Virus record (IMG/VR): IMGVR_UViG_3300045978_000375
Location: 1-64,000 of that record
Source: a virus
Strand: one strand, 5' to 3'
DNA length: 64,000 nt
Below the pieces are notes generated by a model. The model saw only the letters and a list, made by a program, of their open reading frames with translations. It was not told the origin of the DNA and did no database searches. Below are positions 4,432-59,236 of this stretch, piece after piece; positions within the stretch are counted from its first letter, which is position 1, and each line of letters opens with the position of its first letter. The translations under genes and the position numbers were made by a program.

Positions 4432-5211
4432 ATGCTGATCCTCTCCTCCACGTCGGACATCGTCCGAATCGTCACCGATGCGTCTGGCGACATCGAGGTG
4501 CATGCCTCGTGGGCCGACAACAACGCGGGGACGATCACGCCCGGGCGCACGAACACTGCTTCGATCACGACGGCCACGACGACGACCGTCGTTGGCTCGC
4601 CGGCGAGCTCGCAGCAGCGTAACGTCCGGCACCTGAACATCACCAACAACCACGCCTCGCAAACGGTTGTGGTGACGGTCGAGCACACGGACGGGACCAA
4701 CGCCGAGACCTTGATGAAAGTCACGCTGCTCGCGGGCGAAAACCTCGTCTTCGACCAGGGTGGTGGTTGGACCCACTACGACCCGAACGGCGGGACCTAC
4801 GGGGGGCTGCCGGCAGCGACGCAGGCAGACATGGAGTCGGGGACGAGCCTGAACACCTTCGTCACGCCGGGGCGGCTGCACTTCCACCCCGCCGCGGCGA
4901 AGTTTTGGATCAAGGCCACGCCGGGTGGGACCATCAATGCGTCCTACAACGTCAGTGCGGAAGCGGACTCAACCGCTGGTGTCTGCGACATCACAATCGG
5001 AAACGACTTCAGCTCTGCCAACTACGCCGTGGTTGCGATGAGCTTGCGGGCGAATACGAACACGACAGTAACTGACGCCAAGAATACGGCAATCCGCAGT
5101 GCAACGCAGGCGGCTGGGGCCGTCTCAATCGAGACGTACGATCAGACTGCTACGAACTTCGCGGTCGAGGACCCGACTAGCTGGTACGCAGTCGGGTTTG
5201 GAGATCTGTAA
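4432..5211 (+). CDS. tail-fibre-like protein
   Basis: Internal ATG chosen (MLILSSTSD...). The central ATQADMESGTSLNTFVTPGRLHFHP resembles the conserved fibre collar motif. The C-terminal ~100 aa are visibly lower in GC. Confidence 0.5.
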   Translation: MLILSSTSDIVRIVTDASGDIEVHASWADNNAGTITPGRTNTASITTATTTTVVGSPASSQQRNVRHLNITNNHASQTVVVTVEHTDGTNAETLMKVTLLAGENLVFDQGGGWTHYDPNGGTYGGLPAATQADMESGTSLNTFVTPGRLHFHPAAAKFWIKATPGGTINASYNVSAEADSTAGVCDITIGNDFSSANYAVVAMSLRANTNTTVTDAKNTAIRSATQAAGAVSIETYDQTATNFAVEDPTSWYAVGFGDL

Positions 5212-5373
5212 ATGCTACGCAACTATGAGCAGATATTCGCGTGCGAGGCGTTTGGAGCACCGACGGCTCTTCCGGAGGGTGCGGCGCTGACCTTTACCGT
5301 GAATCTGTTGGTGGCCGACGTTGACCCGCCAAGTCACGCGACTGTCAGCATGTCGATCGAGCGGTGCGGGTGA
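5212..5373 (+). CDS. small hypothetical protein (53 aa, below the ORF-track cutoff)
   Basis: ATG immediately follows the TAA of the fibre-like gene (TAAATG). It fills an otherwise empty 166-bp gap, and its stop lies 4 nt before the next ATG. Confidence 0.3.
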   Translation: MLRNYEQIFACEAFGAPTALPEGAALTFTVNLLVADVDPPSHATVSMSIERCG

Positions 5374-5377
5374 ACAC

Positions 5378-5908
5378 ATGTCGGTCCCCGTGCAGAAGTT
5401 CGCGGTGCGGTGCGACGACGGCTCCGTGACGATCCTGGCGTTTGTGCTGCGCTCGCGCGGCCCCACCCCCCGCGGCGGAAAGGTCGATCCCTCTACCGGA
5501 GAATGGGTGCGTGAGCCAACCGACGAGAACGTCTTTTACGAGATCGAGCGCATCTTCGCAGCACCAGGCAAACCCCGCCCGATGGGATACCGTCCGATCA
5601 AGGACGCTGATGTTCCTGCGGATCGCACCTACCGCGATGCATGGACCGACGACGGTAAGGCGATCGTTCATGACATGGGCAAGGCGCGGGCGCTGCACGT
5701 CGCGCGCCTGCGGCGCCGCCGAGCGCCGAAGCTCGTCGAGCTCGACGGCCAGTGGATGCGAGCGATGGGGCAAGGCAACTCGCAAGAGGCGGCACGCGTC
5801 GAGGCTGAGCGCCAAGCCCTGCGCGACCTGCCGGTGACGCTCGAATTCGACAAGATCGACAGCGTCGACGACTTGAAGAAGGCCTGGCCCGAAAACCTGC
5901 CACGGTAA
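5378..5908 (+). CDS. hypothetical protein, fibre-assembly-like C-terminal motif
   Basis: Internal ATG chosen (MSVPVQKF...). The segment ...ELDGQWMRAMGQGNSQEAARVEAERQALRDLP... resembles motifs seen in phage fibre chaperones. Weak call. Confidence 0.4.
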   Translation: MSVPVQKFAVRCDDGSVTILAFVLRSRGPTPRGGKVDPSTGEWVREPTDENVFYEIERIFAAPGKPRPMGYRPIKDADVPADRTYRDAWTDDGKAIVHDMGKARALHVARLRRRRAPKLVELDGQWMRAMGQGNSQEAARVEAERQALRDLPVTLEFDKIDSVDDLKKAWPENLPR

Positions 5909-5912
5909 AACC

Positions 5913-6290
5913 TTGGCTGATCTCGCCTACAAGAGCGTCACGCTCGTCGAGCAGGCGCAGCCTGCGCACATTCGAGGGCACCAGCTCTGGCTGGGCACAG
6001 AAGGACCGGTCGAGCTCGCCGTTGGCCTGAACACAGACTCCGGTGTCTATACGGCGTACGCGCGTGTGATCCGCGACAACCCCCGGGGTGAGGGAACTCT
6101 CGCGCTGCCGGCTGGTGTGGCAGAGGGCACTGACTGGGCGGCTGCGCTCGACGCGGCCTGCGAGGCGTTCACAGCGCGGGCCGACAAGCCGGTAGGACAA
6201 CGCAAGTTCCGCGAGCTCGACATCCGCTCGACTGACCGCGCGGCGCTTCGCGTTGTCGCCGATAGGACGAGGCTTTCTCAGGTGCGCTGA
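5913..6290 (+). CDS. hypothetical protein
   Basis: 125 aa with a TTG start. Its stop overlaps the next ATG (TGATG). Confidence 0.4.
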   Translation: MADLAYKSVTLVEQAQPAHIRGHQLWLGTEGPVELAVGLNTDSGVYTAYARVIRDNPRGEGTLALPAGVAEGTDWAAALDAACEAFTARADKPVGQRKFRELDIRSTDRAALRVVADRTRLSQVR

Positions 6291-8803
6291 TGGCAATCAG
6301 CGCCCGCACAGCCATCGAGTACGGAGTCAGTGGTCAGAACCCGGCGGCGCAGTCGATCACGACTCAGGCCGGTGACAAAGCGGTCATCCTCTGCCAGTCG
6401 AATTGGGAGGGCAGCACATTCAGCACCACGTCGCTGGACGGCGATACTACGCCAAACAACGCGGCATCCGACGACGATGGTGGTTCGGGAGAATGCACCC
6501 ACGTCGTAGTCTGGCTGAATCCGCCGATCGGCGTGCTCTCGATCGACTGGGCATTCGGGGCCGTTCCGAGCGACGGCGCTGAGGTTTGGGCGGTCATCGT
6601 TGCGTGCGACGGAGACATTTCCGTCGTGGATATTGGCGCCGATGCCAGCGGCACCACGACGACGACGACGGAGAACTGCGCGGTTGGCGATCTTGCGGTC
6701 GCGGTAGGATTCGAGTTTGGTGGAGCAGCGTCGGTCGGCAGTGGCTACACGAGCGGCGACGCCATCGCCGCCGACGACGTATTCAACGGACAGCACGGGC
6801 GGCCGTACGCCAAGATCGTCTCGAGCGGCTCGACCATTACCGCGACCTCCCAGCTCGGGGTCGTGCAGGTCATCCTCCGCGAGACGATCACCGCGCCGCA
6901 GTCGATCCTTACGCCAATTGGCCCGCTGCGTCGGGCTCGGGCTGACAGCTCTGGAACGGAAGGCGACGTAAAGCAGTGGTTCGACCAAGCGTTTCTCCTC
7001 GCCAACTGGTTCGATGAGGAGTTTGCTGTCGCGGCGGCGCCTTCTCTCGCGACGTTTCTCCCCGACGAAGAGCTGCCTTTCATCCCACGGTTTCGCCGGA
7101 GCGAGCGCACCGCTCGATCTCTGGTTCACGGTTACGTAAACTTCCCAGAGATTCCACGCCCGCTGATCGTTGCGACTCAGGCGCCGCTTCCAGACATTGC
7201 GGCCGTCAGTCGGATCTTCGCTCCGCACCGCCATCCGGTGTCGGAGATCGTCACGACGACGGCGCAGCAGCAGCCTGGAGCTCTGGCCGATTCGCTACCA
7301 GCACGACCGGCCCAATCTGCACGCGCCCGACAGCTCGTAGAAGCGCACGTGCCACAGGCGGCGATTTCCCTGCCGTGGGTTGGGACTGAGAGCGCGAGCC
7401 GCGGTCAGCCCGTGCGCCCTCCGAGGTTCCGAGAGGACCCGGCGCCGCTCGGGACGATCGATCTCCCGCCCATCGACGCGGACATCTTTGCCCGAGGTCC
7501 TCGGAGCCGGCCGATCCGGCTCGACGCCGAACCCACGGCGAGCCCAACAATCGCCCTCCCGCCCATCAACCCCGACGACTTCCGTCGAGGCCCACCACCG
7601 CGACCGGTGCGGCTCCAAGCGGAGCCAACGTCGCCGGCGGTCATCAGACTTCCGCCCATCAACCCGGAGCCGCCGGCACTCCGGGGTCCCATGCGCCCCC
7701 ACCCGCCGGACCCGGAGTTCGCGCCCGCAACATTCGTCGCGCCGGTCGTCTACCTCGCGGTGCCCGACCTTTTGCCGCAGCGTGCGAGGCTCAGACCGCC
7801 GTCACCGGCCTTTCTCGATCCTCCGCCCATCGCGTTCGCGCAGGCTGCCGTCTCGGCGCTCGTGGACCTGCTGCCGCAGCGAGGGATGCCGGTGCGGCGC
7901 AGGGACGCCTTTTTGGACCCGTCCCCACGGGCTCAGATTGCGCTGCCGTGGGTGCCCGAGCAAGCGGCTCTCCGCGGCGTGGCCATCCGCCTTCCGCGGC
8001 TCGGTCCGGAACCGACGCCAGGGGCGGTCATCGCACTGCCGCCAGTCTCGTCCGAACTTCTGCTCCGCCCCGTCCTCGGCCGCCTTGGCCGCCCGCCTGA
8101 CGTCGACGCGCCCGCTGGGCTCGTGCGCGCGCTCGTGCTCGAGGAGCTGCTGCCAGAGCGCCGGCACGCCCAGCGCCTCGTGCGCGCGTTCGAGCAAGAA
8201 GCGCTCGCAACCGGCGCCCGTCCGTGGCTCGGCCCGGACGAGCTCGTCCAGCGGGTTCGGAGCTCGAGGGGGCGGCTGGCGCCTGATTCGGCGCTCTCCT
8301 CGGCCTTCGTGCCGGTCCAGCTAATCGCGCTCATCGCCGAAGAGCGAAACCCGCCGCATTACGTCGCACCACGGGCCCTCTTTCGGACACTGTGGATCAC
8401 GACCTACGTCCCGACCGGGCCGTTCCTGGTCGTCTTCCTGCCGCCCGCGCCAGAGCACCGCCGCGCCCTCCTACACTACCACCCGAGAAAGGGCCGCCTC
8501 TTGTCGCTCGAAGGAAGCTTCGCCGTGTGGGACGTGCAGCGCGGGCTCGCGCCCATCGATTACGACGTCGACGCTCGCCCCTGGCTCACCGGCACGGCCC
8601 TCCTCGCGACCTTCGTGCTCACGCAGGAACCGGGCGATCCGGTCGTCTACGGACCCGTGCAGCTCGTGCCAGGAGGACGCGACGTGAAGCTCACTGCGTC
8701 GGCCCCGCTCGGCGCGACGCCGGGCTTTTACCGCGTGCGAGCCGACTTCACCGACACCGTCGGCCGGCCGGGCTTCCAGTTCTTTCACATGCGGGTCACC
8801 TGA
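6290..8803 (+). CDS. large repeat-containing structural-type protein
   Basis: 837 aa. Has an N-terminal beta-rich domain, a central Pro/Arg-rich region of ~31-aa repeats, and a C-terminal Ig-like-looking domain. Confidence 0.6.
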   Translation: MAISARTAIEYGVSGQNPAAQSITTQAGDKAVILCQSNWEGSTFSTTSLDGDTTPNNAASDDDGGSGECTHVVVWLNPPIGVLSIDWAFGAVPSDGAEVWAVIVACDGDISVVDIGADASGTTTTTTENCAVGDLAVAVGFEFGGAASVGSGYTSGDAIAADDVFNGQHGRPYAKIVSSGSTITATSQLGVVQVILRETITAPQSILTPIGPLRRARADSSGTEGDVKQWFDQAFLLANWFDEEFAVAAAPSLATFLPDEELPFIPRFRRSERTARSLVHGYVNFPEIPRPLIVATQAPLPDIAAVSRIFAPHRHPVSEIVTTTAQQQPGALADSLPARPAQSARARQLVEAHVPQAAISLPWVGTESASRGQPVRPPRFREDPAPLGTIDLPPIDADIFARGPRSRPIRLDAEPTASPTIALPPINPDDFRRGPPPRPVRLQAEPTSPAVIRLPPINPEPPALRGPMRPHPPDPEFAPATFVAPVVYLAVPDLLPQRARLRPPSPAFLDPPPIAFAQAAVSALVDLLPQRGMPVRRRDAFLDPSPRAQIALPWVPEQAALRGVAIRLPRLGPEPTPGAVIALPPVSSELLLRPVLGRLGRPPDVDAPAGLVRALVLEELLPERRHAQRLVRAFEQEALATGARPWLGPDELVQRVRSSRGRLAPDSALSSAFVPVQLIALIAEERNPPHYVAPRALFRTLWITTYVPTGPFLVVFLPPAPEHRRALLHYHPRKGRLLSLEGSFAVWDVQRGLAPIDYDVDARPWLTGTALLATFVLTQEPGDPVVYGPVQLVPGGRDVKLTASAPLGATPGFYRVRADFTDTVGRPGFQFFHMRVT
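7364..8122 (+). repeat. in-frame ~93-bp (31-aa) Pro/Arg-rich repeats inside the 837-aa ORF
   Basis: Units look like I(D/A/R)LPPI(D/N)xDxFxRGPxxRPxRLxAEPTxxxx. There are four consecutive units, two DLLPQR...AFLDP units, then two IALP(W/P)V units. Confidence 0.7.
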
Positions 8804-45861: not shown

Positions 45862-46347
45862 TCATCCAGCTCGGGTGCCGGACGAGCTTGGCCTAACCCC
45901 CGTGCTCGGAGGGTCCGGGGTTGCCTCAGCTGCTTCCACTGCCATTAGAAAGCTTCGCCACTGCTCAGCGGTGCGCGCCCCACGGGCTGCCTTGGCTGCG
46001 GCTCGAGCGGCTGGGCTCCACTCGCGCTCCGCGAGTACCACCTCGAGCGCAGTCAGCCGAGTTCGGCGCGGCGCCCCTCGGCCGCTCACGAGCCAGTGCA
46101 GGTCAACGTTGTTGCCCTCGGCGATTTTCCGGTGAACGTCGCCTGTGCCGGGGACTTTATCCGGACGCTTGTCGCTTTCCCGCACGAGTCGCGAGACCGT
46201 CTGCCGCTTGAGCTTGGCGTTCTTCGCTACGTCGGCAACGCTCAGCTTTCCGGAGCCGCCGTTCTCTTGGATCCAACGGATGCGGTCAGCGAAGCTGCGC
46301 ACCCGAGGGAGACTGCTAGGCAATTGTCGTTGCCGCAAGGCGAACAC
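45862..46347 (-). CDS. CI-type repressor candidate (HTH)
   Basis: HTH segment GKLSVADVAKNAKLKRQTVSRLVRE and ...HWLVSGRG. The gene lies between the two operator clusters. The start is uncertain: GTG at 46347 or GTG at 46302. Confidence 0.55.
   Translation of the reverse strand: MFALRQRQLPSSLPRVRSFADRIRWIQENGGSGKLSVADVAKNAKLKRQTVSRLVRESDKRPDKVPGTGDVHRKIAEGNNVDLHWLVSGRGAPRRTRLTALEVVLAEREWSPAARAAAKAARGARTAEQWRSFLMAVEAAEATPDPPSTGVRPSSSGTRAG
46319..46334. promoter_or_regulatory. isolated operator-like site
   Basis: GGCAATTGTCGTTGCC, i.e. GGCAA-N6-TTGCC. Lies 33 bp from the PR-module sites, inside the 5' end of the repressor ORF. Confidence 0.45.
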
Positions 46348-46349
46348 GC

Positions 46350-46385
46350 TTGACAATATCTGTTGCCATGGCAATATGCGTTGCC
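46350..46385 (+). promoter_or_regulatory. PR-like promoter-operator module
   Basis: TTGACA ATATCTGTTGCCATGGC AATATG CGTTGCC then GTG. Contains two 16-bp sites (46352-46367 and 46370-46385). 28 of 36 positions match the PL-like module by hand count. Confidence 0.5.
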
Positions 46386-46700
46386 GTGAGCGTAGGTGAG
46401 CGAATCGCCCTGGTTCGGGGCTTGTCTGGTCTGTCGGCAGCTGAACTTGGGCGCAGAGCCGGGCTCTCGAGGGGCACGCTGCCTCTCCTCGAAGCCGGCA
46501 CGAACAAGCAGCCGGGAGCGAAAACGCTGCTCGCACTGAGCCAGGCGACGGGGGTCCCGATGGAGTGGTTCTTGGCTGGCACGGGTGACGCACCGACGCC
46601 TGAAAGCGTGAAGGCGGCACTCGGAATCTCGAACGCCGAAGACCCATCCCCCGACTCCAACGCCCAGCCGAACGGCAAGGCGAAGGAGCCGGCAGCGTGA
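46386..46700 (+). CDS. Cro/CI-type HTH regulator
   Basis: GERIALVRGLSGLSAAELGRRAGLSRGTLPLLEAG...EWFLAGTG. A GTG start at 46386 would be leaderless. An alternative ATG is at 46368. Confidence 0.6.
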   Translation: MSVGERIALVRGLSGLSAAELGRRAGLSRGTLPLLEAGTNKQPGAKTLLALSQATGVPMEWFLAGTGDAPTPESVKAALGISNAEDPSPDSNAQPNGKAKEPAA

Positions 46701-47377
46701 GCGCGATTGCCGTCGCCGACGCGAAGCTCCCGACCTCGTACGTGAAGGCGAGGGACGCGCTCGAGAAGTGCGTCGAGCTCGACGAATGCAAGGAGTGGAA
46801 GGACAAGGCCGCCGCGCTCGCCTCGTACGCGAAGCAGGCGGACGATGAGGAGCTCTACAAGTCCGCGATGAAGATCAAGGGCCGGGCGGTTCGGCGCATG
46901 GGGGAGCTGCTGAAGGAGCTCAACCGACCGGAGCAGGGCGGAAGGCCACCGAAGCCGAAGGAAAACGTGGGAGCCACCGCCCCCGTTTCGCAGCTTGCGC
47001 TCGCCAAAGCAGCCGGCCTCTCCGCTGACCAAGCAAAGCAGGCGATCCGTGTGGCCAACATCCCCAAGCGGGAGTTCGAGCGGCTCATCGAAGCCGAGGC
47101 ACCGCCGACCGTAACTGAGCTTGCCAAGATGGGCACCAAGCCCGTCCATCGCACCGCGTCTCACCTCGGTGGTCGGGACGCCACGGAGTTTTCCGACGCG
47201 ATCAAGGTGCGCGGTCGCCTGCGCGACCTTGCCGACATCTGCGGAAGCGTGACTCCGACCGCCGCCGTTCGCGGCTCCCAAGACTACGACCACCCGAAGA
47301 TGCGCGGCTGGTCCAAGACGATCGCGGCGTGGCTCGAACGGCTCGACGCTGCCCTCGAGAAAGCGAAAGAGACATGA
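46697..47377 (+). CDS. hypothetical early protein
   Basis: 226 aa, GTGA-coupled. Helical N-terminus (KEWKDKAAALASYAKQADDEELY...) common in phage/plasmid early proteins. Confidence 0.5.
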   Translation: MSAIAVADAKLPTSYVKARDALEKCVELDECKEWKDKAAALASYAKQADDEELYKSAMKIKGRAVRRMGELLKELNRPEQGGRPPKPKENVGATAPVSQLALAKAAGLSADQAKQAIRVANIPKREFERLIEAEAPPTVTELAKMGTKPVHRTASHLGGRDATEFSDAIKVRGRLRDLADICGSVTPTAAVRGSQDYDHPKMRGWSKTIAAWLERLDAALEKAKET

Positions 47378-47808
47378 ACGACGCGCAACTAACTGCCCTC
47401 GTGCAGAGCGAGGTGGATGCCGCGCTCGATGCTGGAATTCCGGTTCACAAGAACACGGTTCGTAGTCAAATCGTTGGAAGGCACTGCGAGCACAGCGATT
47501 CAGATTTCGCGCTCGCCTGCGCCCACCACGCGATCGGAGACATCGTTGGGCGCCTGATTCGCAATGCGAAGAAAGCCGAGGCGGAGGGCCCGGATCCGCA
47601 GCTCGTGCTTCCGGGCTACAAGCATTTGCAGCAGCGGTACGCGATCGACCGCGATGGTGAGTCGTACCTGGTTCGCCTTGAGGACATGACGGTCGAGGAG
47701 GGCCGCTCGAAAGCGGCGGCCCTGCGGGTGTTCGCCCAAGGAGCACTGGCGCATGCTGACGAACTCGACGCGTACTTCGACAACATCGAAGCCACGGCTG
47801 CTCAATAG
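47374..47808 (+). CDS. hypothetical protein
   Basis: Internal ATG overlaps the upstream stop (ATGA). 144 aa. Confidence 0.45.
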   Translation: MNDAQLTALVQSEVDAALDAGIPVHKNTVRSQIVGRHCEHSDSDFALACAHHAIGDIVGRLIRNAKKAEAEGPDPQLVLPGYKHLQQRYAIDRDGESYLVRLEDMTVEEGRSKAAALRVFAQGALAHADELDAYFDNIEATAAQ

Positions 47809-47920
47809 ACCCATGCGCCGCCTCCTCGCCCCTGCGTCCCGCACCCGCAAGAGCTGCTCCTACGTGCTCCGAGCGAAGCCGAAGAAGAAGCGCGCCAGAC
47901 GCGCCGAGGAGAACTGAGTC

Positions 47921-48772
47921 ATGGCCATCGAGATCAAGCACCGATTCACAGGCACAGTCCTCTTCAAGAGCGAAACTGCCAAGAGCACGCGCGAAGCCGT
48001 GATCGAGGCGGTTTCCGCGGGCGCCAACCTCGCGCGCGCCGACCTCGCGGGCGCCAACCTCGCGGGCGCCAACCTCGCGGGCGCCGACCTCGCGGACGCC
48101 AACCTCGCGGGCGCCGACCTCGCGGACGCCAACCTCGCGGGCGCCAACCTCGCGGGCGCCAACCTCGCGCGCGCCGACCTCGCGGGCGCCGACCTCGCGG
48201 GCGCCGACCTCGCGGGCGCCAACCTCGCGCGCGCCGACCTCGCGGGCGCCGACCTCGCGGGCGCCGACCTCGCGGACGCCAACCTCGCGGGCGCCAACCT
48301 CGCGGGCGCCGACCTCGCGGGCGCCGACCTCGCGGGCGCCGACCTCGCGGGCGCCCGATCTCTGCCTGCGGGCACCGAAGCGAAGGACCCTCCAGAGCCC
48401 TACGATCGCAACCGAGCGATCGATTACGCCGCACGTGCAGTCAGGTATCGCGAGCGCCACCCGGACGTTCCAGTCGTCGAGCGGCTCGACAGCAGGATAC
48501 TCGAAGCCATCACGACCGGCGGCTGCACGCTGGAGATGGGTTCGTGGCACCAGTGCGAAACCACACATTGTCGTGCGGGCTGGGCGATCCACCTCGCAGG
48601 TGAGCCCGGATATGCGCTGGAGCGGCGGTACAGCGCGGAGCACGCAGGGCGGCTGATCTACCTCGTGAGCACGGGTCGTTGCCCGCATTTTTTCGCGACT
48701 AATGAGAGAGCGCTTGAGGATATCCGGCTCTGCGCCGCACGCGAGCAGCAACCCGAGGGAGCAAGCGCGTAG
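47921..48772 (+). CDS. pentapeptide-repeat protein with Cys/His C-terminal domain
   Basis: 283 aa with a GGAGAA RBS. Has 22 consecutive A(D/N)LA(G/R/D) pentapeptides, then a ~140-aa domain containing GSWHQCETTHCRAGW. Confidence 0.85.
   Translation: MAIEIKHRFTGTVLFKSETAKSTREAVIEAVSAGANLARADLAGANLAGANLAGADLADANLAGADLADANLAGANLAGANLARADLAGADLAGADLAGANLARADLAGADLAGADLADANLAGANLAGADLAGADLAGADLAGARSLPAGTEAKDPPEPYDRNRAIDYAARAVRYRERHPDVPVVERLDSRILEAITTGGCTLEMGSWHQCETTHCRAGWAIHLAGEPGYALERRYSAEHAGRLIYLVSTGRCPHFFATNERALEDIRLCAAREQQPEGASA
48023..48352 (+). repeat. 22 x 15-bp near-perfect tandem array (GCC RAC CTC GCG SRC)
   Basis: Units differ only at base 4 (A/G) and bases 13-14. The array is in frame within the pentapeptide-repeat gene. 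Confidence 0.9.
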
Positions 48773-49027
48773 GTGAAACACTCTCGCAAGCTCGCCATCG
48801 TGCCCGCGCTGTCACCGGAGGAACGCCGGGAATGCGAGCGGGACTCCAGGTTCGACGTTGTGAACGGCCGGCGCGAGCTCGGTCTGACGCAGCTCGGCCT
48901 CGCGCAGAAGCTCACGATCTCGGTCTCGAGCGTCGAGGACTACGAGACCGGCAAGACCAAGGTCCCCGGGTGGGTGCTGAAGGCGATCGAGCGGCTGGTG
49001 AAGGCGGCGCGGAGGGAGGCCGCCTGA
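48773..49027 (+). CDS. XRE-family HTH protein
   Basis: 84 aa. The GTG start is the next base after the pentapeptide gene stop. RRELGLTQLGLAQKLTISVSSVEDYETG. Confidence 0.6.
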   Translation: MKHSRKLAIVPALSPEERRECERDSRFDVVNGRRELGLTQLGLAQKLTISVSSVEDYETGKTKVPGWVLKAIERLVKAARREAA

Positions 49028-51409: not shown

Positions 51410-51599
51410 GCGCCCCAGCGTGGTCGTCCTCGACGTGACGCAGCTCACCCAGGCAGTCGCGGACTACGTGACGAAGCACTGCCTCATGGCGCCCGGTCCG
51501 GTTCGCATCGACTTTCAGATCTATCAAAGCCTGAAAGAGCCAACTCGAATCGAGGCGACGGTAAGGGCGACGACGGGGCCGGAGGTGTTGGTTGTCTGA
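51402..51599 (+). CDS. hypothetical protein
   Basis: Internal ATG. 65 aa. Confidence 0.35.
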   Translation: MAERPSVVVLDVTQLTQAVADYVTKHCLMAPGPVRIDFQIYQSLKEPTRIEATVRATTGPEVLVV

Positions 51600-52074
51600 G
51601 TTACCGACTCGAGCTCTTTCTCTGTACGCGCCTTGGGCGTGGGCGATCATCTGCGCCGGAAAGGACGTCGAGAACCGCAACTGGTTTGCGGCGGGACGAG
51701 GCTTCTTCGGCGACGCGAAGTTTCGCGGCTCGTTCTGGATTCACGCGAGCCTGTTCGGAGGCGATCGTGGCCGGAAGCTCGAGGATCTCGAGGACGAGAT
51801 CAGTTCGATGCTGGATATGGCCAGAGATGCTGGTTGTGATTCGGGCACGCCGGCCGAAGTGCTTCAGTGGTGCCTCGGGGCGCGCGGCAAGATCGTCGGC
51901 TCGGCTCGCGTGACCGGCGCCGTGTCCGCAAGCTCGTCGCCGTGGTTCGTTGGGCCGATGGCGCTTACGCTGGCGGAGCCGGTGGCATCTCGCCTGCAAG
52001 TGCCAGTGCGCGGTGCGCTTGGATTCTGGACGGTATCGCCAGACGTGCTGGCGCAGCTCCGGGAGGTCGCTTGA
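51592..52074 (+). CDS. ASCH-domain-like protein
   Basis: 160 aa. The pattern ALSLYAPWAWAIICAGKDVENRNW...FWIHAS...GKIVGSARV...VRGALGFW is typical of ASCH/PUA-like domains. Confidence 0.5.
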   Translation: MSELPTRALSLYAPWAWAIICAGKDVENRNWFAAGRGFFGDAKFRGSFWIHASLFGGDRGRKLEDLEDEISSMLDMARDAGCDSGTPAEVLQWCLGARGKIVGSARVTGAVSASSSPWFVGPMALTLAEPVASRLQVPVRGALGFWTVSPDVLAQLREVA

Positions 52075-52691
52075 CCGTCGCCGTCCTCTATTGCGACGAG
52101 GGCCGGAACGCTCCCTACGTCAAGCTCAAGGCGGCCGGCGAGGACCTGGACTTGTGGGGAGTCTCGAGGGACGCGCGCAAGTACGACGGGCCGCATACGG
52201 TCGTGGCGCATCCGCCGTGCCGCAACTGGAGCAAGCTTAGCTACCTCGCGAAGGACGATGATAGCGACTGCGCTCTCCGTGCCATCGATCAGGTTCGCAA
52301 GTTCGGTGGGGTACTCGAGCATCCAGCGTCGTCCAGACTCTGGTTGCAGATCAATCTACCGAGCGGCCACCGTGACGATTTCGGAGGACGGCGGATTACA
52401 CTGAACCAAGTCGAGTGGGGGCACGTCGCCAGAAAGCCGACATGGCTCTACCTCGTTGGCGTGTGCTCGCCGGGCCCGATGCCGCCCCCGCGTGAGCCGA
52501 CGCACTGGTGCAGCGGGTTTCGGACCGCTGGTAAGTCCTACTCGCCCGCATACTACAAGCAGCGCGGCTCCGCCGTCCCGCTCGGCATCAAAGTCTGCTC
52601 GGCACAGCAGCGCCGCCGCACCCCACCCCTGTTCGCCGAATACCTCGTAAGGCTCGCTCGTGCAGCAGCGGAAGCTCGGAGGGCAGCGTGA
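52071..52691 (+). CDS. small C5-cytosine-methyltransferase-like protein (degenerate motif I)
   Basis: TTG start overlaps the upstream stop. VVAHPPCRNWS resembles motif IV (PCQ), GGVLEHP resembles motif VI (ENV), and LNQVEWGHVARKPTWLYLVG resembles motif VIII. No clear FxGxG motif and no target-recognition domain. Confidence 0.35.
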   Translation: MTVAVLYCDEGRNAPYVKLKAAGEDLDLWGVSRDARKYDGPHTVVAHPPCRNWSKLSYLAKDDDSDCALRAIDQVRKFGGVLEHPASSRLWLQINLPSGHRDDFGGRRITLNQVEWGHVARKPTWLYLVGVCSPGPMPPPREPTHWCSGFRTAGKSYSPAYYKQRGSAVPLGIKVCSAQQRRRTPPLFAEYLVRLARAAAEARRAA

Positions 52692-52921: not shown

Positions 52922-53271
52922 ATGACACCCGCCTCCTTTGCCCCGCCGACGTCTGCGAGCGCTTCGGATGCTCGCTGCGAAAGGCACTCAAGATCATGCG
53001 CGAGGCCGGCGCGCGGAAGTCTGGCTCGATGGTCCGGCTCGAACCTGAGAAACTGGAGGCATGGTGGCTAGCGCAAAAGGCGACCGCTTCGGCTTCTGGC
53101 TCAGGGGACGGACCTGGTACACGTGCGATCCCGTCACCCGCCGCGACGTCTCGACCCGCTGCCGGGACCTTGAAGCTGCTCGAAGGTGGCGTGCGGCCCG
53201 TGAGCGTATTGCAGCCGATCCGGCAATCGCAGTCCAGGCGCTCGCGACGTTCGGGGACGAGTGCAGGATGA
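52918..53271 (+). CDS. xis: excisionase-like HTH protein
   Basis: GTG overlaps the upstream stop. LLCPADVCERFGCSLRKALKIMREAG...LEPEKLEAWW looks like an excisionase. The frame has no stop until 53271, so the last ~210 nt overlap int and do not look protein-like. Confidence 0.45.
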   Translation: MNDTRLLCPADVCERFGCSLRKALKIMREAGARKSGSMVRLEPEKLEAWWLAQKATASASGSGDGPGTRAIPSPAATSRPAAGTLKLLEGGVRPVSVLQPIRQSQSRRSRRSGTSAG

Positions 53272-54383
53272 TGCTCGACGCGCTCGAAGCCCTGGGCCGC
53301 CCGACGGCCGACTACGAGCACCGGCTCGGGCACTGGACCCGCGTGCTCGGCAACGACTGCCCGCTCTCCGATGTCGGCCCAGCCGCCGTCGACGCGTTTA
53401 TCGCGCAGCGCAGCGCCGAGGGGGTTACGAACCACACCATCTCGAAGGAGCTGAAGGCGCTCGTCAGGACGCTCCGGCAGGCGAAGCGTGCTGGCCGGTA
53501 CGCGGGGGCACTTGAGGTCCTGCGCCCGCTCGGCTTCACCGCCGGGTATGTGCCTCGGACACGCACCCTGACGCTCGTGGAGCTCCAGGTCCTGCTCGGC
53601 GAGCTCGAGCCGGAGGAGCGAGCGTTCGTCGTGCTGCTCGTCGCCTTTGGCCTGCGCCGGGGCGAGGCTGCCCGTGTGCTTCCCTGCGACCTCGATACTG
53701 CCAACTGGGTGGCCCGGGTGCGTGGGACGAAGACGGCCGGGGCTCTCCGGGACCTGCCCATCCTCGAGCCCTTCCGGCCGCTCGTCGAGGCGGTCCTGCC
53801 CTACCTGCCGCTCGGCGCCTGGGTGCGCTCGACCCAGTACACGCGGGTCCTCCTCCGGGCGGCGGCGCGCGCCAAGCTCGAGCCGGTGACGGCGAACGAC
53901 CTCCGCCGGACCCATGCAACGCTGCTCCGGAACTGGAAGGTGGACCGGGACACGGCCCGGACGCTGCTCGGGCACTCGCCGAAGTCGCAGCTGCTCGAGA
54001 CCGTCTACGACAAGCCGAGACCCCACGAGCTCGCTGCTCGCGCCGGCGACCTCTCCGCCCTCACGGTCGCCCTGGCCCCGATTGCAGAATCACTGCAGTC
54101 GGCACCAAAAACATCCACTTCTCTCGGAGAAACCCGCGGCAGTGAACCGCCATGGGGGCCGACCTATAGCCCCGCCGGGTCTGCCTCGCCAGTGTGTTCG
54201 CGGGGTTACGGGCCAGGAACTGGCCGGGAAGAGCCGGACACCAGCGCAGAATCACTGCAGTCGGCTGGCCCCGCGGCGTGGGCGCTTGAGTTCGCCCGTG
54301 AGGCGCTGAACGTCGAGCCGAAGGCGACCATCTTCCTTGGCACCGGCGTGATCCTCCGCCGCAAGAGGAGGGACGTTGGCTAA
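53061..54383 (+). CDS. int: tyrosine integrase with long C-terminal extension
   Basis: Catalytic motifs RRGEA, GTKT...R, DLRRTHAT and LLGHS...ETVYDK are present. About 110 aa follow the catalytic Tyr. Confidence 0.8.
   Translation: MVASAKGDRFGFWLRGRTWYTCDPVTRRDVSTRCRDLEAARRWRAARERIAADPAIAVQALATFGDECRMMLDALEALGRPTADYEHRLGHWTRVLGNDCPLSDVGPAAVDAFIAQRSAEGVTNHTISKELKALVRTLRQAKRAGRYAGALEVLRPLGFTAGYVPRTRTLTLVELQVLLGELEPEERAFVVLLVAFGLRRGEAARVLPCDLDTANWVARVRGTKTAGALRDLPILEPFRPLVEAVLPYLPLGAWVRSTQYTRVLLRAAARAKLEPVTANDLRRTHATLLRNWKVDRDTARTLLGHSPKSQLLETVYDKPRPHELAARAGDLSALTVALAPIAESLQSAPKTSTSLGETRGSEPPWGPTYSPAGSASPVCSRGYGPGTGREEPDTSAESLQSAGPAAWALEFAREALNVEPKATIFLGTGVILRRKRRDVG
54084..54103 (+). repeat. 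20-bp direct repeat, copy 1 (GCAGAATCACTGCAGTCGGC)
   Basis: Exact copy of 54246-54265. Lies in the 3' extension of int. Confidence 0.9.
54246..54265 (+). repeat. 20-bp direct repeat, copy 2
   Basis: Exact copy of 54084-54103, 162 bp downstream. Confidence 0.9.
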
Positions 54384-56796: not shown

Positions 56797-57831
56797 TTGA
56801 TCACCGTCAAGGAAGAATTTCTCAGCGACGACAAGACCCAGCGTGCCATCAAGCTCGGCGGCTACGAGGTCATCGCCATGTGGCTCGCGATGAAGTGCTA
56901 TGCGGCCTCCCACGCGACGGATGGATTCATTCCTGCCGAGGACGTGGAAAGCCTTCCTGGCGCTCCCAGGAAGGCTCGGGCTGCGCTGAAGGCCCTCGTC
57001 GAGTGCGGGCGACTGCAAGCGGATGGTAAGCGCGGAGCGGGCCTTGTGGACCCCGTTGAGCACGGCTGGCAGCTCCACGATTATCTCGACCACGCGGCGA
57101 GCAGCGACGAGATCGAGGTCCGGCGGAAGAAGGCGCGCGAGCAGAAGGCAAACCGCCGCGCCGAGCTCCGTCGCCAAGCAGATGCCGGACAGAGTCCGCA
57201 GACAGCGCCGCCGGACAGACACGGACAAAGTCCGCGGACATCAAGCGGACAGTCTACCGGACCTCGCGCGCCAGCGGGCACCCGCCCGCCCGCGTACGGG
57301 CGCACGCGTGATCCCAGCCCAGCCCAGCCCAGCCCAGCCCAGCCCATAGCAGGCAGCGGCATCACGGTTCGGGCAGGTCGGCAGAAAAAGGCCCGTCCAA
57401 TCGTGGATTCTGGCCTGCTCGTGGTGTCTTTGCTGGCTAGGGATTGGGTAATTCCTGAGGCGTTTTGGGAGTACGCAAGCGAGCTTGGCCTCAACGCGAA
57501 CGAGTACGAGAGCGTCCTCGCCGACTACCGCGAAAAGGTCACTCGCTCTGGTTCTGCGACTTGGCTTGCGGACAAGCTTTGCCGGTACATCGAAGCCGCG
57601 CACCGACCTGAGCCTGAGCCAGCCGCCCACCGCCCACCGGTCATCCTGCAGCGTGAGATCAAACCGATCGAGATGGGCGAGGTCCCGGCCGAGGTGCTCG
57701 CCCGAATCAGCCCCCAGCGCGCGCTACGAGGTGTCCAGAAGAGCCGCGAGCAGCAGATTGAGGAATTGAGGGCCTACGAGGAAAACGCGTCTAATGGGCG
57801 CCTAGAGCCCGAGGAGGCGACGGGTGGCTGA
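56797..57831 (+). CDS. putative replication initiator / helicase loader
   Basis: 344 aa. TTG start with a GGAGG RBS. Overlaps the dnaB start. Has a winged-helix-like N-terminus and contains the 5-bp repeat in its linker. Confidence 0.45.
   Translation: MITVKEEFLSDDKTQRAIKLGGYEVIAMWLAMKCYAASHATDGFIPAEDVESLPGAPRKARAALKALVECGRLQADGKRGAGLVDPVEHGWQLHDYLDHAASSDEIEVRRKKAREQKANRRAELRRQADAGQSPQTAPPDRHGQSPRTSSGQSTGPRAPAGTRPPAYGRTRDPSPAQPSPAQPIAGSGITVRAGRQKKARPIVDSGLLVVSLLARDWVIPEAFWEYASELGLNANEYESVLADYREKVTRSGSATWLADKLCRYIEAAHRPEPEPAAHRPPVILQREIKPIEMGEVPAEVLARISPQRALRGVQKSREQQIEELRAYEENASNGRLEPEEATGG
57313..57346 (+). repeat. pentanucleotide tandem repeat (CCCAG) x6 plus partial
   Basis: Six exact units plus CCCA. 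Encodes PSPAQPSPAQP, and a TAG follows in another frame. Confidence 0.9.
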
Positions 57832-59236
57832 CGGGCAGCGCTCGGGCATCACGCCGCGCTTCGACCTCGACGCCGAGGGGCAGCTGCTCGGCGCTGCGAT
57901 GGTGGATCAGGGCGCCGCGCTCGAGCTCGTCGAGCTGCTCGATGAGACGGACTATTACGCCGACTCGAACCGGATGGTGCATCGAGCCGTGCGGGAGCTT
58001 TGTGCCCGCGGTGAGACGGCGGACCTTGTGTCGGTGCGGGTGTGGCTCGATTCGATGGGGCTGCTCGCCCGGGTGGGCGGAGCGCCCTACCTCGTCCAGC
58101 TCCTGAACGTCCCGTCGCTCGTACACGTCGAGCAGCACGCGAGGCTCGTGCGCGGGCTCGCGCGCGTGCGGGCTGCCGAGAACACGTTCAAAACGCTCGC
58201 CGCTGAGGCGCGGACGGCGGAGATGCCGGACGTCGACGCGTGGCTCGAAGGGGCCGAGATGCGGGCCTACCAGGCCACCGCGAACCTCGTCTCCAAGCGG
58301 CAAACTGTCTCGTCCTACGCGGAATTCGGCGCCATCCTCGACGCCGGCTGGGCGGAGGCGCAGGCGCGAAAAGAACGCACGCTCGGGACGGCCACCGGAT
58401 ACGCCCGGCTCGACGAGCACACGCTCGGCATGCAGCCAGGGCAGCTCTGGTTTCTCGGAGCCCGCCCCGGGCAGGGGAAGAGCGCCTGGGGCCAGCAGCT
58501 CGCCGAGTACGTCGCTGAGCGCGGCGGCGGTCATGACGGCGTCGTCTTTCTCAGCATGGAGATGAAACGCCCCGAGCTCGTGCTCAGGACCTACGCCCGC
58601 CATTCGAACCAGAGCACGCGCGGGATCCAGCGTCGAAAGCTCGATCAGACCGGTTGGACTGCCTACCTCGACGCCCGCGAGCGCGCCTCCAAGTGGCCGA
58701 TCGTCGTGGACGACGAGCCGCGTCTCACGCCGCTCCGCATCCGCTCGAAGGTCCTTCGGCACCAAGCTTCCCTCCGAAAGCGCTACCCGAACGCCCGGCT
58801 CTCGCTCGTGCTCGTCGATTACGTGCAGCTCCTCCATGCCGACACGGAGCGAAAAAACACGACGCGCGCGACCGAGCTCGGCGAGATCACGCGGGCCCTG
58901 AAGGTGATGGCCGGGGAGTTTGGATGCACGTTCCTCGTGCTCTCGCAGCTCACGCGGCCGAGCGACAAGAGCAAGATGCCGCCGGCGCCGACCCTCTTCG
59001 ACTTCCGGGACTCGGGCTCGATCGAGGCCGATGGCGACGTCGTGCTCGGCCTCCATCGCCCCGATCAGTACCGAAAGCCCGGGACGGATCCGACCGGGAT
59101 CTGCGAGGTGCACGTCCTGAAGACGCGCGGCGCCGGGGAGTGCGCGTTCGAGCTGCAGTGGACAGGGCGCTCGACGCGGTTCGACAACTTGGACGAGCGG
59201 AGCGACCAGCTCTGGAAACCGCAGGAGGACGCATGA
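57824..59236 (+). CDS. dnaB: replicative DNA helicase DnaB
   Basis: 470 aa. Walker A GARPGQGKS, Walker B LVLVDYVQLL, SQLTRP and IEADGDVVLGLHRPDQY. Confidence 0.9.
   Translation: MADGQRSGITPRFDLDAEGQLLGAAMVDQGAALELVELLDETDYYADSNRMVHRAVRELCARGETADLVSVRVWLDSMGLLARVGGAPYLVQLLNVPSLVHVEQHARLVRGLARVRAAENTFKTLAAEARTAEMPDVDAWLEGAEMRAYQATANLVSKRQTVSSYAEFGAILDAGWAEAQARKERTLGTATGYARLDEHTLGMQPGQLWFLGARPGQGKSAWGQQLAEYVAERGGGHDGVVFLSMEMKRPELVLRTYARHSNQSTRGIQRRKLDQTGWTAYLDARERASKWPIVVDDEPRLTPLRIRSKVLRHQASLRKRYPNARLSLVLVDYVQLLHADTERKNTTRATELGEITRALKVMAGEFGCTFLVLSQLTRPSDKSKMPPAPTLFDFRDSGSIEADGDVVLGLHRPDQYRKPGTDPTGICEVHVLKTRGAGECAFELQWTGRSTRFDNLDERSDQLWKPQEDA

Follow-up and report, generated by a model that had tools for sequence, protein, structure and literature searches.

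A conserved His/Cys domain borne on interchangeable tandem-repeat arrays: a phage early-region family exemplified by a 22-unit pentapeptide-repeat protein

The window, i.e. the whole 64,000-nucleotide stretch analysed here (positions 1 to 64,000 of the IMG/VR virus record IMGVR_UViG_3300045978_000375), encodes terminase, portal, tape measure, baseplate, DnaB and an integrase, the last of which indicates that the phage is temperate. Its divergent regulator pair (Table 1) consists of a leftward repressor-like gene, with weak matches to phrog_2328 and phrog_4, and a rightward Cro-like gene, which matches Pfam HTH_3 and Phage_CI_repr as well as phrog_2328 (E 5e-12). The Cro-like gene heads a rightward co-directional block within which lies the gene under study, encoding a protein of 283 aa. 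A preliminary description of this DNA, made from the sequence alone, had assigned the gene to an early operon, and both the regulator pair and the early-region position of relatives in Ralstonia phages (see below) agree with that placement.

The gene call is identical to that made by the JGI gene caller on the source contig, and the same protein, without a single difference, is found on six contigs. The preceding ORF stops at 47808, so that the 112-bp gap and the 283-aa ORF described earlier are exact by coordinates. The Shine-Dalgarno sequence in the gap stands 9 nt ahead of the ATG. Scanning the gap revealed no + strand terminator and no sigma-70-like promoter (the scan covers sigma-70-type sites only, which may not be the host's type), nor does 47780-47925 contain any inverted repeat of at least 8 nt. 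The TAG stop (48770-48772) is followed on the very next base by the GTG of an HTH gene, which passes the Pfam cut-offs of HTH_31 (28.9 vs 27 bits) and HTH_3 (26.5 vs 23 bits), in keeping with the XRE type first proposed for it. An ORF of 821 aa runs antisense to the locus at 46316-48781; it was rejected as a gene, being an artefact of GC content and repeats.

Table 1. Features of the locus, in window positions
Feature	Position	Strand	Content and basis
Divergent regulator pair	45862..46700	.	Repressor-like gene 45862-46293 (-); Cro-like HTH gene 46350-46700 (+)
Intergenic gap, 112 bp	47809..47920	+	GAGGAG ribosome-binding site at 47906-47911
Whole gene, 283 aa	47921..48772	+	Two-module protein: beta-helix (modelled) and conserved C-terminal domain; ORF listing, JGI call, phrog_31265
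N-terminal cap, aa 1-34 (MAIEIKHRFTGTVLF...)	47921..48022	+	Beta-hairpin and helix in the AF2 model
22 tandem pentapeptides, aa 35-144	48023..48352	+	Unit listing, Tandem Repeats Finder, PF00805, AF2, Foldseek
Linker and first helix, aa 145-180	48353..48460	+	Conserved DPPEPY, then YAARAVRYRER; closer subfamily only
C-terminal domain core, aa 181-275	48461..48745	+	Mainly helical; AF2 pLDDT 90.5, pTM 0.82
Signature W209-H210-x-C212-x-T-T-H216-C217-R-A-G-W221	48545..48583	+	Candidate metal site or Cys-His active centre
XRE-type HTH gene, 84 aa	48773..49027	+	GTG start on the base after the upstream stop; Pfam

The short N-terminal cap noticed at the outset measures 34 residues. In the AF2 model it comprises strands at residues 3-7 and 13-17 and a helix at 23-32 (block pLDDT 86-92), and its EIKxRxTGxVLF motif is kept in the alignments with relatives. 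It is followed by a run of A(D/N)LA(G/R/D) pentapeptides, previously put at 22 without interruption, and a unit-by-unit listing gives exactly this number, drawn from only four kinds of unit (ANLAG, ADLAG, ADLAD and ANLAR). At the DNA level, Tandem Repeats Finder reports a 15-bp unit in 22.7 copies (48016-48355, 92% matches); the 22 units agree at 12 of their 15 positions, variation being confined to nucleotides 4, 13 and 14, and every difference among them is non-synonymous and falls at a surface position. The score against Pfam PF00805 (E 5.3e-31, 106.2 bits against a cut-off of 20.2) indicates that the array is not a product of chance. A role of the repeats as DNA, in the form of iterons or Chi-like sites, was considered and is unlikely, because frame and residue pattern survive different codon usage and unit lengths. 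Because the assembly is metagenomic and the array a 330-bp stretch of near-perfect 15-bp repeats, mis-assembly may have affected the number of units.

The AF2 model of the full protein (pLDDT 86.7) places one-residue strands at every fifth residue over aa 40-146, and a Foldseek search with it matched solved pentapeptide-repeat structures (best E 1.8e-10, probability 1.00), the top matches being cyanobacterial and synthetic consensus solenoids. Structure prediction, as called for earlier, supports the repeat region as a genuine right-handed quadrilateral pentapeptide-repeat beta-helix. From standard helix geometry, the array would make ~5.5 turns over a length of roughly 26 A. Its 110 residues, strongly acidic as a whole, include 15 surface Asp vs 3 Arg, with a pI of 4.05 and a calculated charge of about -12 at pH 7. 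The window's own protein might conceivably mimic DNA.

Past the array the confidence of the model drops in the linker (pLDDT 62-78), and the segment of aa 145-180 is missing from distant members of the family. The Cys/His tail, estimated at ~140 aa in the preliminary description, spans 139 aa (residues 145-283); it holds WHQCETTHCRAGW (aa 209-221) and ...GRCPHFF, and AF2 predicts for it a six-helix domain. Among 121 HMMER-selected sequences W209, H210, H216, C217, G220, G227 and G230, together with others, are invariant, and C212 is conserved in >90%. Across a set of 350 sequences H210, C212, H216, C217, R218, E234, Y247, S250 and D267 are each at least 96% conserved, H216, C217 and R218 being fixed in this set by the selection pattern itself. 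The domain model sets the signature motif between two short strands and ahead of a helix (local pLDDT 72), with C217 directly before the helix and beside H216, an adjacency that is unusual for metal co-ligands. Placed on a hairpin loop and at a helix N-terminus, H210, C212, H216 and C217 are candidates for a metal site, perhaps a treble-clef-like zinc site, or for an active centre of the Cys-His kind.

No function had been recognised in this domain from its sequence, and the searches bear this out: it matched nothing in Pfam (E<=10), NCBIfam or PADLOC, nothing among PDB sequences in a profile search, and, with its model, nothing significant in the PDB by Foldseek (best E 6). Against BFVD, the sole non-noise match (E 0.022, probability 1.00) is a 74-aa viral protein, which appears to be a stand-alone homologue in Flavobacterium phage FL-1. 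Since Foldseek is weak on small helical domains, an orphan fold is to be read here as one with no confident match, rather than as a proven new fold.

When the domain was used as a query it retrieved 222 proteins at 51-70% identity, most of them of 170-240 aa and with PF00805 at the N-terminus, and an exhaustive profile search extended this to 1,918 clusters (50% identity clustering, E<=1e-3). Relatives number 171 in IMG/VR, with 95 hits among 185,579 species genomes and 3 among the 72,556 records of a plasmid collection, one of which looks phage-like on account of the integrase, excisionase and YqaJ genes on the same record; matches to so few plasmid records make it less likely that the family works in the leading region of conjugative plasmids. 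Isolate phages, searched again with a divergent member as query, yielded the same 20 records. The family belongs very largely to phages and prophages, spread over many bacterial phyla, and stand-alone domain proteins occur within it. It is well supported that what defines the family is the helical C-terminal domain of ~95-135 aa and not the pentapeptides. The repeats had been taken at first for the functional part of the protein, a view that is not borne out across the family, where the C-terminal domain is conserved whereas the repeats differ in number, charge and type. A literature search found no paper on the domain family; mentions of phage pentapeptide proteins concern Qnr-like annotations or the Hailong defence system.

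The variety of N-terminal modules is apparent across 157 related loci: pentapeptides are found at 110, C-x-x triplets at 28, a 12-mer repeat at 4 and a hexapeptide at 1, while several loci have no array at all. Array length ranges in the family from about 1 to 53 units. Third-codon-position identity has a median of 98.5% within arrays, reaching 100% in that of the window, vs 60% between arrays. Two loci, L069 and L070, are 100% and 98.9% identical in their flanks, yet carry 19 vs 9 units, and another pair, L012 and L015, carries 17 vs 23. It is well supported that the tandem-repeat module at the N-terminus is interchangeable and evolves quickly by local expansion and contraction. Acidity, moreover, is generic to A(D/N)LXX repeats, ~12% of the family's pentapeptide arrays are neutral or basic, and some C-x-x arrays are Arg-rich; DNA mimicry is therefore excluded as a family-wide mechanism. 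Such arrays also break short-read assemblies and leave copy numbers unreliable, and 20 of the 78 related loci stop partway through their array.

As to the genomic surroundings, the homologue in T7-like Ralstonia phages is the fourth annotated gene, before primase and helicase. The families that recur within 3.5 kb of related genes are ERF (13), YqaJ (12), RecT (11), N6/N4 methylases (9), C5 methylases (7), SSB (6) and helicases (6). All-against-all clustering of the neighbours within the same distance, at 158 loci, placed the commonest cluster in just 14 of them. The genes that flank it in the window were not met again at the corresponding position in any related locus; elsewhere they gave two weak matches (about 26% identity), on the opposite side of the homologue, and PDB searches with three neighbouring window proteins gave no match. 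It is well supported that this is a mobile, accessory gene found in the early, recombination and replication regions of phages.

The explanation that I favour, tentatively and at somewhat less than an even chance, is that this member of a large phage-borne family is an early host-takeover protein, made of a His/Cys head and an acidic rod, with a putative DNA enzyme as its target. The protein would be made early in infection; its head, either binding a metal or relying on Cys217 at the helix N-terminus, would attach to, or act upon, some widely conserved partner among the proteins of DNA metabolism, while the rigid acidic rod might serve as a nucleic-acid-like decoy or a steric blocker. Because recombinases of the ERF, RecT and YqaJ families, SSB and methylases recur in the neighbourhood, the favoured target would be a host enzyme that processes DNA ends or cleaves DNA, either a RecBCD/AddAB-type nuclease or a restriction enzyme, and in its role the protein might be comparable to lambda Gam, T7 gp5.9 or Ocr. 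A spread in array length from a single unit to more than fifty is hard to square with a precise DNA-shaped fit and speaks against the decoy. Most anti-defence proteins evolve fast, unlike the head, whose strong conservation across hosts of many phyla speaks against a counter-defence role; and no single neighbour is conserved, which speaks against the explanation as a whole.

A bolder version, which is unlikely as things stand, would have a new metal- or thiol-dependent head mounted on swappable and highly expandable solenoid rods (pentapeptide, C-x-x triplet, 12-mer or hexapeptide), whose length and surface would be retuned by slippage, over ecological timescales, so as to track a host DNA-end nuclease or a defence sensor. 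If true, the head-on-rod protein would be a tunable analogue of Gam or Ocr with an undescribed fold, and the mechanism one resembling a contingency locus in an early phage gene.

The same conserved residues lend themselves to a different account, in which the C-terminal domain would work as an enzyme, dependent on a thiol or a metal, that covalently modifies or cleaves a host or defence protein, with Cys217 as the nucleophile and His210 or His216 assisting, and the array is a substrate-recognition or scaffold module, no DNA mimicry being involved. The polar residues at least 96% conserved in 350 sequences (H216, C217 and R218 fixed by the selection pattern), the position of Cys217 directly ahead of a helix and the existence of stand-alone domains would all fit, and cross-phylum conservation suits an enzyme with a universal substrate; variable surface positions and swappable solenoid types suit a recognition module, and the Foldseek match to NleL via the beta-helix offers a precedent for the architecture. 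However, Foldseek revealed no similarity to a known enzyme fold, a core of ~95 aa would make for a small enzyme, a structural zinc site accounts equally well for the H-x-C...H-C pattern, and near-identical units afford little recognition specificity, so that I regard the enzyme as rather unlikely. It is very unlikely that the protein is a modulator of the Qnr/MfpA type, with a beta-helix that imitates a DNA segment and, during infection, inhibits or shields the host gyrase or topoisomerase IV to which it binds. Small phage-encoded gyrase inhibitors such as Gip and Igy are known (PMC10886550), and of the earlier proposal, a DNA mimic aimed at gyrase or at a defence system, the pentapeptide-repeat beta-helix does stand, and the surface of the helix is acidic. 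The link to gyrase does not fare as well: the protein scores 39.8 bits against a cut-off of 240 with the Qnr model NF033086, 22-43 bits against cut-offs of 425-500 with the Qnr subfamily models, and 35.2 bits against a cut-off of 360 with the MfpA model NF000349. In Qnr-type proteins one or two loops interrupt the helix and a C-terminal helix mediates dimerisation (PMC10886550), whereas here the array runs without loops and a 139-aa domain takes the place of the dimerisation helix, on which grounds, together with the scores, a Qnr/MfpA relative was rejected. A helix whose length varies about 50-fold within the family, and for which other repeat types substitute, also argues against a topoisomerase ligand, as do the top structural matches, which are not Qnr or MfpA.

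The arrangement of the two abutting genes had suggested an analogy with Acr-Aca operons, in which the pentapeptide protein would block a DNA-targeting defence (CRISPR or restriction) and the HTH protein would be its dedicated autorepressor. The exact abutment (stop 48772, GTG 48773), the XRE type of the downstream protein and the accessory character of a gene that moves among unrelated early regions are all as such an operon would have them. Yet among 121 candidate downstream ORFs at 75 related loci none belongs to HTH_3 or HTH_31 and one belongs to the YdaS family, no family recurs and the downstream genes are heterogeneous; judged by these sequence comparisons, the HTH adjacency is specific to the window phage and not a conserved partnership, and as regards conservation the analogy does not hold. 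The gap, moreover, has no sigma-70-type promoter-like site or inverted repeat for a regulator, neither protein matches PADLOC (a library of defence systems, not of anti-defence proteins), and in its length of 283 aa and its deeply conserved domain the pentapeptide protein departs from typical Acr proteins. All told, such an operon is highly improbable, an HTH neighbour in one genome being weak evidence for a module of this type. Nor is it at all likely that the gene serves the lysogen, as a prophage host-benefit or superinfection-exclusion gene acting against other phages. To its credit are the integrase of the window, hence a temperate phage, the many relatives on bacterial genome contigs and the contingency-like variability of the arrays; against it, the gene lies inside the rightward operon behind the Cro-like gene, lacks a separate promoter-like site (sigma-70-type scan), has no PADLOC match and has homologues in the early region of T7-like Autographiviridae. 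The latter are generally regarded as strictly lytic. It is hardly credible, finally, that the 22-unit array is an assembly artefact or a functionless product of neutral slippage. True, 330 bp of near-identical 15-bp units exceeds typical short reads, and about a quarter of the related loci examined for this end within their own array; but the identical protein recurs on six contigs, frame and A-x-L pattern are kept in 110 loci despite different codons, isolate phage genomes have the same architecture, and all differences between units are non-synonymous and at surface positions.

What is new here is a domain family of ~1,900 clusters that has no Pfam or NCBIfam model and no significant structural neighbour. 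The label currently given to its proteins in the databases, merely 'pentapeptide repeat-containing protein', conceals their informative conserved part, which is the C-terminal domain. As the family sits beside recombination and replication genes, and on arrays that change between near-identical phages, it makes a well-defined candidate for a host-takeover or counter-defence module, and culturable members exist in the Ralstonia podophages and in Flavobacterium phage FL-1.

Among known systems, the pentapeptide-repeat proteins Qnr, MfpA, AlbG and McbG, which protect topoisomerases, share with the window protein the right-handed quadrilateral beta-helix of A(D/N)LXX repeats (here as modelled) and an acidic surface; the structural similarity to Qnr and MfpA is found at only 20-26% identity and ranks under that to the cyanobacterial and synthetic solenoids. 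Acr-Aca operons likewise have an accessory gene directly followed by a small HTH gene, but the pairing of the window is not conserved among relatives, and no operator-like inverted repeat or sigma-70-like promoter lies upstream of it. NleL and SopA, which join a pentapeptide beta-helix to a HECT-like ligase, are type III effectors of bacteria, as is IpaH, which joins LRR to NEL. NleL and SopA resemble the window protein in having an N-terminal pentapeptide beta-helix and then a separate domain with an essential-looking Cys, and NleL is matched by the window model via the helix (Foldseek E about 5e-6); the C-terminal domain, however, resembles neither HECT-like nor NEL domains in fold or sequence, and NleL and SopA are secreted, in contrast to the cytoplasmic, phage-encoded window protein. 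Phage inhibitors that act on DNA enzymes by mimicking DNA (T7 Ocr and gp5.9, lambda Gam, ArdA) have in common with it that they are early phage genes, and the window protein has a highly acidic rod-like surface; lambda gam adjoins bet and exo, as the family here adjoins ERF, RecT and YqaJ recombination genes. There is no sequence or structural similarity to any of the four, and within the family the rod varies in both charge and length. Phage proteins that do resemble it are found by the domain itself, at a tblastn identity of about 39%, in the Ralstonia podophages and FL-1. No adjoining HTH gene is annotated in RsoP1IDN, RSK1, RpY1 or FL-1, and FL-1 differs in that its gene encodes the C-terminal domain alone, whereas RsoP1IDN gp4 and its counterparts in RSK1 and RpY1 (annotated in GenBank as 'putative pentapeptide repeat protein') have the same two-module architecture and lie in the early region. 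Both halves are likewise matched by phrog_31265: the full protein at E 2.5e-44, with residues 1-146 aligned to profile positions 1-150, and the C-terminal domain alone at E 2e-15, over positions 148-247 of the 264 in the profile.

The pentapeptide-repeat gene of the window is the same ORF as in the gene calls of the source contig (JGI sample 3300045884, 64,662-bp contig), and its product, which has two modules and belongs to an uncharacterised phage family, is present in identical form on six contigs. A GAGGAG site precedes the ATG by 9 nt. In agreement with the preliminary description, a gap of 112 bp separates the gene from the end of the preceding ORF (47808); residues 35-144 are exactly 22 uninterrupted A(D/N)LA(G/R/D) pentapeptides (ANLAG, ADLAG, ADLAD and ANLAR), a count which could be wrong because the sequence is a metagenome assembly and the array a 330-bp run of almost perfect repeats; a Cys/His tail of about 140 aa follows, and the HTH gene begins at the base after the stop. 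Tandem Repeats Finder resolves the array into 22.7 copies of a 15-bp unit with 92% matches. Across the 22 DNA units, 12 of the 15 positions are identical and the three variable ones are all non-synonymous, synonymous variation being nil. The long antisense ORF spanning this gene and upstream genes, in which the repeat is read as (REVGA)n, is most plausibly spurious, a product of the repeat and of high GC content.

Features of the window and of the encoded protein
Feature	Position	Strand	Remark
Repressor-like gene	45862-46293	-	
Antisense ORF, 821 aa	46316-48781	-	
Cro-like HTH gene	46350-46700	+	
Pentapeptide-repeat gene, 283-aa ORF	47921-48772	+	ORF listing, sequence
Cys/His tail	aa 145-283		C-terminal part of the 283-aa protein
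Terminator-like site	48672-48685	+	
TAG stop of the pentapeptide-repeat gene	48770-48772	+	
HTH gene, 84 aa	48773-49027	+	GTG start directly after the stop; above Pfam cut-offs HTH_31 and HTH_3
First overlapping ORF	51592-52074	+	phrog_3193, E 1.5e-27
Second overlapping ORF	51867-52691	+	phrog_12600, E 8e-46
Integrase gene	53061-54383		
DnaB-like helicase gene	57824-59236		

The repeat module is a true, acidic pentapeptide-repeat beta-helix. It matches Pfam PF00805 (E 5e-31), and in the full-length AF2 model (pLDDT 86.7, pTM 0.60), built from an alignment of 57 sequences, an N-cap (hairpin 3-17, helix 23-32) precedes a regular solenoid at about aa 38-147, a linker of lower confidence and the C-terminal domain. 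Foldseek aligned this model to pentapeptide-repeat structures of the PDB (best E 1.8e-10), the top matches being cyanobacterial and synthetic consensus solenoids. With 15 Asp and 3 Arg, the array has a pI of 4.05 and a net charge of about -12; for the standard solenoid geometry of four pentapeptides per 4.8-A turn, its 22 units would by calculation make about 5.5 turns and roughly 26 A, a length over which B-DNA would bear about 15 phosphates.

The C-terminal domain is a deeply conserved, helical His/Cys domain without known relative. As sole query it retrieved 222 proteins (51-70% identity), almost all of which have 170-240 aa and N-terminal pentapeptides, and an exhaustive search with a profile made from stand-alone examples returned 1,918 clusters (50% identity) at E<=1e-3 and 1,375 at E<=1e-10. 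Among 121 HMMER-selected sequences, P184, D190, M206, W209, H210, H216, C217, G220, G227, G230, A242, G252 and F257 are invariant and C212 is kept in >90%; the Cys and His of "...CPHFF", which had been counted as part of the Cys/His domain, are not conserved in the alignments of relatives. Modelled alone (AF2, pLDDT 90.5, pTM 0.82), the domain folds into six helices plus a short hairpin bearing the WH-x-C loop, with H216 and C217 where the third helix begins (local pLDDT block 72). No match to it was returned by Pfam at E<=10, by NCBIfam and PADLOC, or by a PDB profile search; nor did Foldseek match its model in the PDB (best E 6), and, Foldseek being weak on small helical domains, it is safe to speak of no confident structural neighbour. 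The only non-noise match in BFVD, a 74-aa protein (E 0.022, probability 1.00), appears to be a stand-alone homologue of Flavobacterium phage FL-1. The sole family recognising the domain, phrog_31265, is uncharacterised and spans both protein halves.

The N-terminal module is interchangeable. Among 157 loci with homologues, it is a pentapeptide array in 110, a (C-x-x)n triplet array of 6-56 units in 28, an array of the 12-mer STVARVLGIASD in 4, and other or none in 15, namely one locus with hexapeptide, left-handed-helix-like repeats (L054:4392-5309), several array-less ones and eight truncated by the contig end. LRV/HEAT-like repeats occupy this place in the database protein P0184, and some proteins (110-125 aa) consist of the domain alone. 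At L082, L084, L098 and L104 the domain is joined to 6-21 copies of (S/D)(T/D)VARVLGIAS(A/D), a 12-residue repeat, with no pentapeptides. The long triplet arrays, such as CSDCSGCSRCSYCS, are fused to the same domain in ORFs at about 5200-6350 of each locus (L110, L112, L116, L117, L122, L124, L131, L134, L138, L143-L146, L152, L154, L155, L162) and have their own N-caps, e.g. TWxTDxNGNRCSVEYFGSxEAA; some are Arg-rich. The genome contigs that carry them belong to Alphaproteobacteria, Bacteroidota, Nitrospira and others, including isolates (Kaistia, Rhizorhapis, Phyllobacterium, Dyadobacter); no earlier account of such a repeat is known to me.

Arrays expand and contract quickly. Pentapeptide counts range from about 1 to 53 (59 loci with complete 5' end), metagenome copy numbers being unreliable because arrays break short-read assemblies. 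Median third-codon identity between units is 98.5% within an array versus 60% between arrays (97 arrays), which is a signature of recent local expansion; loci L069 and L070, with flanks 100% and 98.9% identical, have 19 versus 9 units, and the near-identical phages L012 and L015 have 17 versus 23. Net charge per pentapeptide has a family median of -0.38 versus -0.5 in the window, and about 12% of arrays are neutral or basic. In 20 of 78 related loci the contig ends within the array (L013, L016, L017, L020, L023, L025, L028, L031, L033, L037, L039, L041 and others), and several contigs have the gene at both ends or in two places (pairs L010/L042, L066/L073, L062/L068). Some phages possess two or three adjacent pentapeptide-repeat genes, tandem paralogues with or without the C-terminal domain (L062:1097-2415, L064:758-2112, L066:4701-6636, L011:2528-3355). 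P0022 (233 aa, 944-bp contig) joins a glutathione-S-transferase N-terminal domain to the C-terminal domain through a short run of pentapeptides; its junction ...AICAYLADAYLAYANLA... looks like an assembly chimera via microhomology.

The window comes from a temperate, tailed phage or prophage and encodes large terminase, portal, tape measure, baseplate, exonuclease, integrase and DnaB-like helicase. The divergent repressor-like and Cro-like genes, 56 bp apart, are probably its lysis-lysogeny switch. From 46350 on, the + strand genes are closely spaced or overlapping, the pentapeptide-repeat gene being the fourth; no + strand terminator-like site lies between the Cro-like gene and its start, the sole one being inside its coding sequence, and neither a sigma-70-like promoter (promoter scan) nor an inverted repeat was found in the 112-bp gap. 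Given this spacing and the lack of terminator or gap promoter, the gene may reasonably be placed within a rightward early operon. The integrase gene is located among the rightward early genes, upstream of the helicase; this placement is uncommon and may indicate where the prophage map has its attachment-site end. Two ORFs share 208 nt, read in different frames; the start of the second probably lies farther downstream, and the motif PPCRNWS in its product resembles C5-methylase motif IV.

The family is essentially phage-borne, with 171 relatives on IMG/VR viral contigs, 95 matches in 185,579 species genomes, 3 in 72,556 plasmids (one record with integrase, excisionase and YqaJ genes) and 20 in 50,697 isolate phage records (19 Ralstonia phages and Flavobacterium FL-1). 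The genome matches belong to Myxococcota, Acidobacteriota, Actinomycetota, Patescibacteria, Planctomycetota, Verrucomicrobiota, Cyanobacteria, Bacteroidota, Nitrospira and Alpha-, Beta- and Gammaproteobacteria. In Ralstonia phage RsoP1IDN the homologue is the fourth annotated gene, before primase and helicase. There is no conserved partner gene, the commonest neighbour cluster occurring in 14 of 158 loci, and the window's own neighbours do not recur at the same position in related loci (two weak matches only). The families recurring within 3.5 kb are those of a phage recombination and replication module (ERF 13, YqaJ 12, RecT 11, N6/N4 methylase 9, C5 methylase 7, AAA_24 7, SSB 6, DEAD/ResIII helicase 6, PD-(D/E)XK nucleases 6 and 5, integrase 5), and the gene is accessory and mobile, belonging to early regions associated with recombination.

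The preliminary description, sound in its observations, went further and proposed a DNA mimic acting on gyrase or a defence system, likening the pairing with the HTH gene to the Acr-Aca arrangement; these specific proposals are supported only in part. The exact abutment is real, but it is confined to this phage: among 121 ORFs downstream of homologues at 75 loci (at most two candidates per locus, starting -30 to +200 nt from the stop), none belongs to HTH_3/HTH_31 and one to the YdaS family, the downstream genes being heterogeneous (methylases, nucleases, helicases, RusA, NinG, ThyX, CsrA). An Acr-Aca-like module thus lacks support from conservation, and that reading is quite improbable. The Qnr/MfpA-type reading shares the beta-helix, yet tests of membership in that group failed; in Foldseek, QnrB1, AhQnr, MfpA and AlbG rank lower, with 14-26% identity. 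The reading is improbable, as is a role benefiting the lysogen, and an artefact would be highly improbable.

The pentapeptide part is of an already known kind; the apparent novelty lies in the joining of this part to a domain without annotation, which defines about 1,900 clusters, and in the swapping between unrelated tandem arrays, and a literature search found no paper on this protein family. Being well delimited, and with culturable model phages at hand, the family is a testable candidate. The account favoured here, if only tentatively, is a composite of conserved head and adaptable decoy rod in a recombination-associated phage gene, its identity part being much firmer than its mechanism part. 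The C-terminal domain would perform the conserved job, as a metal site or Cys-His centre, and the rod would be an adaptable appendage, whose charge and dimensions in this phage may be compatible with a nucleic-acid decoy. The main rival, unlikely by comparison, is an enzyme for which the solenoid would serve recognition, on the pattern of NleL/SopA and IpaH. For the conserved head with its decoy rod, a DNA-end nuclease or restriction enzyme might be the target, since the recombinase neighbourhood recalls that of lambda, where gam adjoins bet and exo.
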